Shown here: positions 1,208 through 3,054 of the stretch, piece after piece
How positions within the stretch are numbered: position 1 is the stretch's first letter
Layout: every line of letters starts with the position of its first letter
NCBI GenBank assembly: GCA_951804945.1
Contig: OX638156.1
Location: 34,286,001-34,350,000 of the forward strand
Source: Podarcis cretensis
Taxonomy: Eukaryota
Reading direction: 5' to 3'
DNA: 64,000 bases
Translations under genes and position numbers: made by a program
The notes under the pieces: generated by a model
Told to the model about the DNA's origin: nothing
The model's database searches: none
The model's input: the letters and a program-made list of their open reading frames with translations, nothing else

Positions 1208-3054
1208 AGGACTTCCGGGTTAGCGCGATCGGCTAATGGCGGATTCCCTCCAAGCTCCGGAGGGAATCGGCTCTGCTGCAGACGGGTCTCATCGCGACGG
1301 CGACGCGGGGACCCTTAGAAACCGCAGGCGTGGAAGCCTGCGGACTTGGTGACTCGGTGGGCACCTCAAGCGCCCCCCCCGACCCACGAAGAGCCTTTTT
1401 AAAGGCTACGGAGAGGGTACGGAGAGTGGCGTGGTGCTGTGAGTAGACCGCTACTGCAGTGGAGCGAAGCCGCGAGCCATGGCCGGAGAGCGCTGACTTT
1501 TTTCCCTGAAATTTGGACTTGAAATAACCCGTGAGTAGAATGGAATTTGGACTCTAAAATTTTTACCTTTAAATTCGGTACGACCGGGGGATGTGCTAAA
1601 GGGAAGTCCGCACCCCCTCTATTTACAAAAGATTTAAAGCAAGGATCGGAGAACTAAGGTGGAGATATCTTTTTTTTTTTTTTTTGGTACGAGTTAAAAG
1701 ACATTAATTCCACGAATTTGACAGAAGAAGATTTGTGCTGGAGAGTAAGAGTTGAACTTTAGAAGCTTTTGTCTAACCCCCCCCCCCCCCAACCCGGGAG
1801 TGCCCCTGTGTGTGAGCTGGAGGAAAAGGAACAAGGAGTTTGACAGCTGTCAAAGGAGCTGTCAAACGGGCAGTTAAAGTTAAAAAATTTTATTGTTTAA
1901 CATCTCTCTGGACTAAATTTGCTATATTTGAATTAAAGTGCTTGGGAACAAAGTAGTTACAAATAACAAAGCAACAGATTGTTGGGAAAGGACTATTAAG
2001 TAACTAGAATCCCCCTAGGGGAAACTTTGAAACATTACAATGGCTACACATGGAAAATTACAGGCAGAGATAGAAAGAATGTTTCTTCTCGTGGGAATAC
2101 TGCAAGAGCAAAGCATGGCTATGAACAAACAACTTATAACCTTGAACTCTAAAACAAGCAACCCTGCTGAATGCATAAAGGATCTGACTGAAACAAAATC
2201 TGCAGCTGAACCAGAGGAGACTTTTTTGGAACTGGAGGAGAGGGAAGAAGGAGTTAAGAAACTACAGGAGAGTACCAATCTGAAGCCTACACTGCTAGAA
2301 CATAAAGAAGAAGATCTTGGGATTACCAATCTGTGAAAGATGCGAAAGTGGAAAGAGGAAGCCCATGGAACACTTGGAATACTGGAACTTAAAAGAAACA
2401 AGAAATATGATTGGGGCTTCCTCTTTGAGTATGGGAGATCAGTTGGCTTGTTGCAGCAGCTGTTACCAAGTATTTTGGATGGAAGAAAATCTGATGAGAC
2501 TGTGCCAGAGCTCCTTCGAGAACTGAGGACCAACAAAGAGGGCTACCAACAAAACCGGCAGAGAGAGACTGACAGAGATTTGAAGGCCTCTGATGTGAGG
2601 AATCCAGGCTAAGAACTGTTTTGTGGACATTTATTTTGGGAAGGGACAGAAACCGGGGTAGGGAGGGAGGGGAGAACAGAATTTTAAAACTTTTATGACT
2701 TTTGTGTTTGGCTATTATGACCTACATTCAATATAAAAAGGGGGAAATTCGTGGAAGGGAATTTGGGTCGACCTTAGAAAAGGACTTAATATTTATAAGA
2801 AAATTGGACAAGTAAAATTTGGCCAAGTAATAAGAATTAATTTTAAAAATAACAATAATATGTTAAAGAAGAGAGATAAGAACCTGCTGAGCTAATTATT
2901 GGATTTGGGATGTATGAAGGGGGGGTGGGGGGAAGTCAGGGAGTGGGGTTAAGAAAGTAAGGTTATGAAATTATACATGTTTTGTTTTTGTTTTCATCTG
3001 TGTGTGTTTTTAAAATGTGAAAACCCAATAAAAATTACTTTAAAAAAAAAAAAA
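1208..3054 (+). mobile_element. Full-length non-autonomous, ORF-bearing poly(A) retroelement, copy 1 (L1-dependent, HAL1-like architecture)
   Basis: Perfect 17-bp TSD GATAGTGAGTTTCTCCC at 1191-1207 and 3055-3071; starts GGACTTCCGGGTTAGCG; CpG-rich leader; AATAAA 3027-3032; A13 tail 3042-3054; colinear homology with 21765-23809. Confidence 0.9.
2040..2612 (+). pseudogene. Element-encoded ORF (~190 aa) of copy 1, broken by one in-frame TGA at 2334-2336
   Basis: ORFs 2040-2336 and 2340-2612 share a frame; both ends align to the 215-aa ORF at 22582 (GKLQAEIERMF vs GKIQAELDRAF; RDLKASDVRNPG vs RDLRASDVRSPG). Confidence 0.8.

Follow-up and report, generated by a model that had tools for sequence, protein, structure and literature searches.

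To our knowledge, L1 retrotransposons use target-primed reverse transcription (TPRT) with no known need for cyclization of the RNA. The choice of template by L1 is thought to reflect cis preference and the poly(A) tail, with the role of tracts in the untranslated regions (UTRs) left open in the available text of two reports (PMC5381506, PMC10830416). Human ORF2p cradles a stem in its template, and unpairing of this stem lowers TPRT (PMC10830416, accessible part). HAL1 elements are defined, in the available text of PMC5753468 and PMC5786205, as L1 derivatives that encode an ORF1-like protein only. Both HAL1 and the clade-1 L1s of lizards are already known kinds of element, and pairing of the two RNA ends has been described for Ty1, an LTR element (PMC7969010, accessible part). 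Here, we describe a HAL1-type family of a lizard genome that is represented in the window (the whole 64,000-nt stretch of DNA analysed) and whose RNA is predicted to pair its two ends.

HAL1-type copies and their family

Copy 1 (1210..3054, forward strand; 1,845 nt) is a full-length member of subfamily H1, with siblings that are 96-99% identical. It is flanked by a 17-bp target-site duplication (TSD; GATAGTGAGTTTCTCCC at 1191..1207, forward strand, with the second instance at 3055-3071) and ends in poly(A). Its ORF1-derived frame (2040..2612, forward strand), which gives 190 aa in sibling copies, is interrupted by a premature stop at 2334-2336. The 3′ region that follows (2613..3054, forward strand) consists of a worn remnant of the end of L1 ORF2 and then an L1 3′ UTR, and contains the 3′ strands of the helices P0-P5 described below, AATAAA at 3027-3032 and the poly(A). 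Copy 2 (21766..23809, forward strand; subfamily H5) is also full-length and ends in poly(A), as copy 1 does; it lies between TSDs at 21748-21764 and 23810-23826 and has an intact ORF of 215 aa (22582-23229). Copy 3 (31667..32360, forward strand) is a 5′ portion only, with 5′ strands that are without 3′ partners, and is embedded in the ORF2 end of another L1.

The surroundings of copy 3 (31450-32730) hold two 5′-only fragments (31543-31666 and 31667-32360), neither with poly(A), inside the uninterrupted ORF2 end of this different L1, the 3′ UTR of which also has a GGAAGTC (32616). The fragments possibly arose by template switching in reverse transcription. Elsewhere, self-comparison of the window gave MITE-like self-complementary repeats at 26286-26421, 41395-41519, 48144-48368, 51592-51777 and 62683-62803, and ORFs at 58423-59101 resemble what we take to be the RT end of an RTE/BovB-type LINE.

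The 5′ 17-mer of the element occurs 2,647 times in the 1.5 Gb genome, against 0 occurrences of the reversed control. An unbiased sample was taken as the first 100 places listed for contig C1; 99 of these could be oriented, and 76/99 had a TSD on both sides, at 1.4-2.8 kb, and A-rich tails. Together with the two window copies, these 76 fall into 21 clusters. The elements measure 1.5-2.7 kb, and no ORF in them exceeds 261 aa. Intact ORFs in the family encode 174-261 aa; ORF2 (EN/RT) is absent, its C-terminal remnant alone being left. The protein of the longest ORF type (subfamily H2) is 32% identical to L1 ORF1p of the same genome over 269 columns (E 3e-39), and the H1 and H5 proteins align with it. 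Database matches for the protein numbered only two, both from Podarcis lizards, the better being an L1 RRM-domain protein; a Pfam search with the H1 and H5 proteins returned no significant family. Between subfamily representatives dN/dS is 0.36-0.63 in 14/14 pairs. The ORF nearly always ends in xxASDxRxPG-stop (window 2583-2612) despite its eroded middle, and this tail, which could be a stall peptide or a Gly-end degron, is missing from L1 ORF1p. One subfamily, H3 (L116 and 12 others, 13/76 of the complete unbiased copies), is without an intact ORF1-derived frame.

Because of the similarity to ORF1p, the ORF2-end remnant with L1 3′ UTR, the L1 5′ start and the known definition of HAL1, the repeat is, as judged from its sequence, of the HAL1 type, derived from a lizard L1 and left with ORF1 only. 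The insertion hallmarks and the shared ends suggest that it is mobilized in trans by L1 ORF2p. Some TSD-bounded elements have a 5′ piece fused to a 3′ part (L215, 447 nt; L208, 169 nt; L115, 616 nt; L150, 1165 nt; L081, 1511 nt), internal deletions that proximity of the 5′ and 3′ ends might favour. In L066 and L113, copies of other retroelements are inserted in the HAL1 5′ UTR (element nt 107-125) at a TTAAAA site, which is likely an endonuclease target.

Complementary blocks at the two ends of HAL1 and L1

A sequence-only reading of the window had described blocks in the 5′ leader that are complementary to blocks in the 3′ UTR, and the positions it gave are correct: TTCCACGAATTT at 1708-1719 and the block at 2745-2756 are exact reverse complements, as are CTAAGGT at 1654-1660 and the block at 2771-2777, and GACTTCC and GGAAGTC at 2931-2937. 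The pairing of the 5′-terminal GACTTCC stands, but the start of the range at 1602 does not, as the true site (1210-1216) lies outside it; 1602-1608 is instead a second, internal GGAAGTC and a rival partner for the 5′ end. The blocks of copy 2 pair with the help of G-U as claimed (22259/23367, 22213/23392, 22175/23630 and 21766/23650). The differences named between the two copies are one-sided G-U changes and therefore do not by themselves show covariation.

The nested arrangement now comprises six predicted helices, the 5′ strands of which all lie on the forward strand. P0 is formed by the terminal GACTTCC (1210..1216; partner 2931-2937), which is common to the autonomous L1. P1 has a C-tract and a TRYA core (1611..1627; partner 2911-2927), P2 has the strand AGCAAN (1638..1643; partner 2883-2888), P3 lies at 1654..1661 (partner 2770-2777) and P4 at 1708..1719 (partner 2745-2756). 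P5, which is post hoc and weaker, has the strand CCYGG (1793..1797; partner 2653-2657). Two of these were absent from the earlier description, namely AGCAAG/CTTGCT (1638-1643:2883-2888) and the inner CCYGG/CCRGG (1793-1797:2653-2657). The internal GGAAGTC (1602..1608, forward strand), the alternative 5′-end partner, is unchanged in 93/96 copies found; it could alternatively be an ETS-like DNA site. The blocks are well conserved, as had been claimed, with a majority frequency of 0.81 in helix columns compared with 0.66 in flanking aligned columns.

Other candidate features were set aside. The TRYA core is not a direct repeat, since the 5′ TGTA pairs with the 3′ TACA and vice versa. A G-quadruplex at 2918-2950 is not a conserved feature: by eye, the four G-runs are present in H1 and not in H2 or L1. 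A CTGGAG:CTCCAG helix crosses P5. Two palindromes were also observed. The first, TTTGACAGCTGTCAAA at 1839-1866, is accompanied by a tandem repeat, has a counterpart in the 5′ UTR of L178 (nt 639-657), is degenerate in H2 and takes the form TGACAG-N4-CTGTCA in L1-A; a hairpin is one option and a TALE-homeodomain-like site is another. The second, CCCCTAGGGG / CCTCTAGAGG at 2012-2021, lies ahead of the ORF, is common to HAL1 and L1 with a compensatory change, and is a candidate hairpin, dimerisation site or splice acceptor.

Full-length L1s of the same genome are 5.9-6.2 kb long and encode an ORF1 of 332 aa and an ORF2 of 1,245 aa with EN and RT. HAL1 is 72-75% identical to them over the 5′ 330 nt and ~72% identical at the 3′ end. 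Their 5′ UTRs, of 918-926 nt, start GACTTCCGG(T)..ATGGCG, a start that is shared by the anole clade-1 L1 consensus (PMC5381506, available part). The same blocks are found in the same places in 12 full-length L1s from three lineages, ~5.3 kb apart. In L1, the ORF2 stop is where the 3′ strand of P4 starts, and the 3′ strand of P5 falls within the final ORF2 codons; these final codons, bearing the 3′ strands of P5 and P4, are retained in the HAL1s. By sequence comparison, the paired blocks of HAL1 are inherited from L1. Further loci that start with GACTTCCGGT (L181-L200) were mostly decayed or unrelated, with no usable 3′ ends.

Covariation between the two ends

Covariation was assessed in 78 elements of this one genome that have both anchors (66 HAL1 and 12 L1), taken from 106 candidates; the 28/106 left out (4 without a 5′ anchor, 23 without a usable 3′ anchor and 1 chimera) bias the set in favour of intact blocks. 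The alignment was made by sequence only and the tree was built from the region upstream of the blocks. In the tree-aware null, the changes of each column were re-placed on random branches.

The summed Watson-Crick excess was higher than in all 200 nulls for P1b, P2, P3 and P4, with lower values in slid registers. For P1a it lay above 195/200 nulls (5/200 reached it), and 18/500 nulls reached the score of the post hoc helix P5, the central pair of which is C-G in 39, T-A in 28 and T-G in 7 of the 78 elements. Several individual pairs illustrate the exchange: among the 78, 1626:2912 is T-A in 46 and C-G in 32 with no exception, 1625:2913 is G-C in 54 and A-T in 21, and 1659:2772 is G-C in 53 and A-T in 23. 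All four Watson-Crick types occur at 1643:2883 in P2 (A-T 32, G-C 19, C-G 9, T-A 5; unpaired 11). P3 is 92-99% paired across seven columns despite sequence turnover between HAL1 and L1, the strands being CTAAGGT/ACCTTAG (copy 1), CTAAGAT/ATTTTAG (ORF-less subfamily) and CTGCAAT/ATTGCAG (L1-A), all of them pairing.

When 125x134 aligned UTR columns from 22 subfamily representatives were scanned blind, just two conserved runs of at least five pairs emerged, which are nested and total 13 bp. These runs are P2 and P3; P1 and P4 fell below the threshold. The sequence-only reading had held that its idea would fall if shuffled controls paired as well, and 0/2000 local column shuffles reached 13 bp. 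The 3′ P0 motif, looked for by profile in all 99 copies, pairs with GACUUCC in 89/93 of those found (38 unchanged and 51 by way of G-U). G-U pairs outnumber A-C pairs by 66 to 38 in the 22 representatives, the rows of which are not independent. This excess favours the sense RNA, and fold-back of DNA or of the antisense strand is disfavoured for the same reason.

Single pairs gave a less decisive result. Over 15,720 column pairs the best E values were 0.12 and 0.17, and among 4,060 they were <=0.01. Several off-helix pairs score almost as high as helix pairs, 1643:2883 is non-significant by MI-APC (E 37) and independent compensatory events number ~1-2 per pair. RNAalifold, run at default settings on the 78 rows, gave no consensus structure. 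The covariation that the sequence-only reading had proposed as its check thus appears above phylogenetic background for whole helices, is borderline for single pairs and yields no consensus in RNAalifold.

These observations bear on whether any RNA structure has been selected. The blocks could instead be protein-binding or promoter motifs, or purine/pyrimidine-biased tracts, with a complementarity that results from chance and shared ancestry. The few independent events, the off-helix columns that covary almost as strongly, the blank RNAalifold result and the chance that mosaic subfamilies break the tree null are all consistent with such an origin. However, four helices each exceed all 200 nulls, registers were named beforehand (those of P3 and P4 in the sequence-only reading, before other subfamilies were examined), L1 lineages have other sequences in P3 and P4 with pairing kept, and both the G-U excess and the blind scan point to RNA pairing. 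An origin by chance and ancestry is therefore very improbable indeed. The proposal of a conserved RNA architecture joining both ends is supported, as a prediction, by covariation across HAL1 and L1 subfamilies, and we consider it highly probable that the end-to-end fold is real, covarying and inherited from L1.

Predicted folding

In the whole-element fold of copy 1, P0, P1 and P4 form (0.98-0.99; P0 p=0.99) and P2 and P3 do not. In that of copy 2, P0 and P1 form and the P3 and P4 named earlier do not, while P1 and P3 form in the whole-element folds of two other copies. Folds of the two ends were also made for 17 representatives. P3 formed in 8/17, P4 in 4/17 and P2 in 0/17; P1b formed in 12/12 HAL1 compared with 1/5 L1, and P0 in 1/5 L1. 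Cognate 5′/3′ duplexes of P1/P2 are 3.1 kcal/mol better than heterologous duplexes (p=5e-4). The P1/P2 duplex beats shuffles in 13/14 HAL1 but only 1/4 L1 representatives, with segments that were chosen post hoc. The end-to-end structure is accordingly predicted, from these models, to be partly dynamic and to be weaker in L1.

The ORF-less subfamily H3 retains the blocks and is still predicted to fold into a rod, and the loop in L1 holds both ORFs. The looping out of the ORF that the sequence-only reading had emphasized is therefore incidental. As the ORF-less subfamily keeps the blocks, their role is likely to concern the RNA as a template or retrotransposition substrate, rather than regulation of the ORF.

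The pairing could also be real but act before reverse transcription, either by shielding the cap-proximal nucleotides and the 3′ UTR from decay or as a switch between translated and packaged RNA, in which the 5′ GACUUCC toggles between the internal GGAAGUC, which is made first, and the 3′ GGARGUC. Several observations fit this possibility. Nucleotide 1 lies within P0; 57/118 TSD-bounded copies have one additional G at the 5′ end, which would fit copying of the cap; the 5′ UTR has 4-7 upstream ATGs in the four elements checked; and in the two-end folds of the 17 representatives the 5′ end pairs with the 3′ site in 10/17 and with the internal GGAAGTC in 4/17. Retention of the blocks by the ORF-less subfamily makes it doubtful that translational control of the ORF is the sole role, and is compatible with protection from decay. 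We regard a role of this kind, before reverse transcription, as rather unlikely.

Full-length insertion and a splice-like site

The sequence-only reading had suggested that joined ends may explain the full-length insertions, by holding the ends together so that reverse transcription reaches the 5′ end. Genome-wide, the 5′ site of H1 occurs 782 times and its 3′ site 903 times. On contig C1, a 5′ site lies 1.3 kb upstream for 62/80 HAL1-H1 3′ sites, whereas for L1-A a word lies 1.38 kb upstream for 31/71 3′ sites (p=2.5e-5), or 25/47 when one word variant is taken alone (p=0.006); the words compared are unlike in degeneracy and the families are unlike in age. HAL1 is thus less truncated than L1-A at matched distance, and with 62/80 against 31/71 pairing may make some contribution to full-length insertion of HAL1. 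However, L1-A shares the blocks, yet only 8/71 of its 3′ ends have a listed 5′ end; separately, full-length L1 was found at 4/20 loci. As block-bearing L1s are mostly 5′-truncated, pairing alone does not secure full-length insertion, and the suggestion is unsupported as it was stated. The 3′ strands would, moreover, be copied first, with early unzipping of the helices. Completion of the 5′ end as the role of the pairing is for these reasons very improbable.

A conserved splice-donor-like CCC/GTGAGT (candidate; 1528..1536, forward strand) is nearly invariant in HAL1 and L1. It raises the possibility that the 5′ strands lie in an intron, with the donor at ~nt 322 and an acceptor-like CCCTCTAG at ~nt 805, that unspliced RNA alone could join its ends, and that the fold would bar spliced, promoter-damaged RNAs from retrotransposition. 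GTAAG-type sites at nt 290-370 in anole clade-1 L1s (available part of the PMC5381506 supplement) are in line with such a donor. A genomic search for spliced copies gave 0 true cases against 700 unspliced junction words, the four pattern matches being unrelated DNA; exclusion of spliced RNAs would give this result, but zero spliced copies are equally expected if splicing never happens. The acceptor-like site doubles as a conserved palindrome and has no long pyrimidine tract. The donor joint was not found among 15 of 25 joints in contigs of three presumed-RNA runs and one other, which is uninformative either way. We consider a filter against spliced RNAs to be improbable.

A possible role in template selection

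The reading that we prefer is that the nested blocks would clasp the capped 5′ end and the 5′ UTR onto the 3′ UTR, and that this clasp singles out intact RNAs, with both ends, as the templates of L1 ORF2p; we hold this role to be plausible, if somewhat short of an even chance. In the predicted arrangement, P0 (nt 1-7 and a site 62-215 nt ahead of AATAAA) would adjoin P1, and P2-P5 would zip inward to give a rod closed by the ORF region. By analogy with human ORF2p on the Alu stem, the lizard ORF2p may dock on the clasp helix near the poly(A), and the helices would be unzipped early by reverse transcription. Only RNAs with both ends, and hence with the internal promoter, would present the clasp, so that promoter-bearing daughters would be favoured. 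The loop would be ~1 kb in HAL1 compared with 5.3 kb in L1, and the more stable fold may allow HAL1 to capture ORF2p in trans. For human L1, poly(A) by itself can also be enough for an RNA to be copied (PMC5786205, available part), and we count this against the clasp as a template signal.

In its widest form the proposal is more tentative: that a vertebrate LINE-1 cyclizes its RNA through six nested 5′-3′ helices, from the capped first nucleotides to the end of ORF2, that the clasp is a template signal for ORF2p, and that this would explain why full-length half-L1 and ORF-less parasites, with deletions that leave both strands in place, have arisen from the lineage in their thousands. Ready-made mutant pairs are offered by the covarying fold, the natural compensatory variants and the short parasites of this active L1 lineage. 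With such pairs one could ask how intact RNA is distinguished from broken RNA by a LINE and by what means ORF2p is captured by non-autonomous elements, and they may also help in designing templates for gene insertion with retrotransposons.

Comparison with known systems

A literature search (Repbase and most subscription journals lying outside it) found, in the text available, no end-to-end pairing for any LINE and no lizard HAL1. Like described HAL1s, the lizard element is L1-derived, encodes an ORF1-like protein only and has L1 5′ and 3′ ends, a TSD and poly(A). It differs in its lizard host, its many young subfamilies of 1.6-2.3 kb and its ORF1, which has worn down to 174-261 aa and keeps a near-constant xxASDxRxPG terminus. 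One subfamily here is ORF-less, and the conserved 5′-3′ pairing goes unmentioned for HAL1 in the available text of PMC5753468 and PMC5786205.

The parent resembles L1 clade 1 of the anole (Boissinot and Sookdeo 2016, PMC5381506, available part) in its long 5′ UTR starting GACTTCCGG...ATGGCG and its ORF1 and EN/RT ORF2, the anole sequences compared being 400 nt long. The same available text reports no 5′-3′ pairing for these elements, and most non-mammalian 3′ UTRs are said there to be without a G-tract. The ORF-less H3 keeps only LINE 5′ and 3′ parts, as do the bipartite non-autonomous LINEs of the RTE, Ingi, Vingi and R2 kinds (PMC5786205), although the available text of that report gives no ORF-less example from the L1 clade.

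Long-range 5′/3′ pairing in a retrotransposon RNA that is tied to replication is described for Ty1 CYC5/CYC3 (PMC7969010, available part). Ty1, in contrast, belongs to the LTR elements, relies on a tRNA primer and strand transfer and has no sequence relation to the lizard L1; with its non-LTR anatomy, ORF2 with EN and RT, and poly(A), the lizard element does not belong with Ty1, and the likeness is one of analogy only. The Alu stem-loop on human ORF2p (PMC10830416, accessible part) offers a further parallel, as a helix upstream of the poly(A) favours use as a template and allows a parasite to prevail in competition with L1 RNA. In Alu this stem is local, whereas the lizard helix would bring together the two ends of the RNA and is shared by the autonomous L1.
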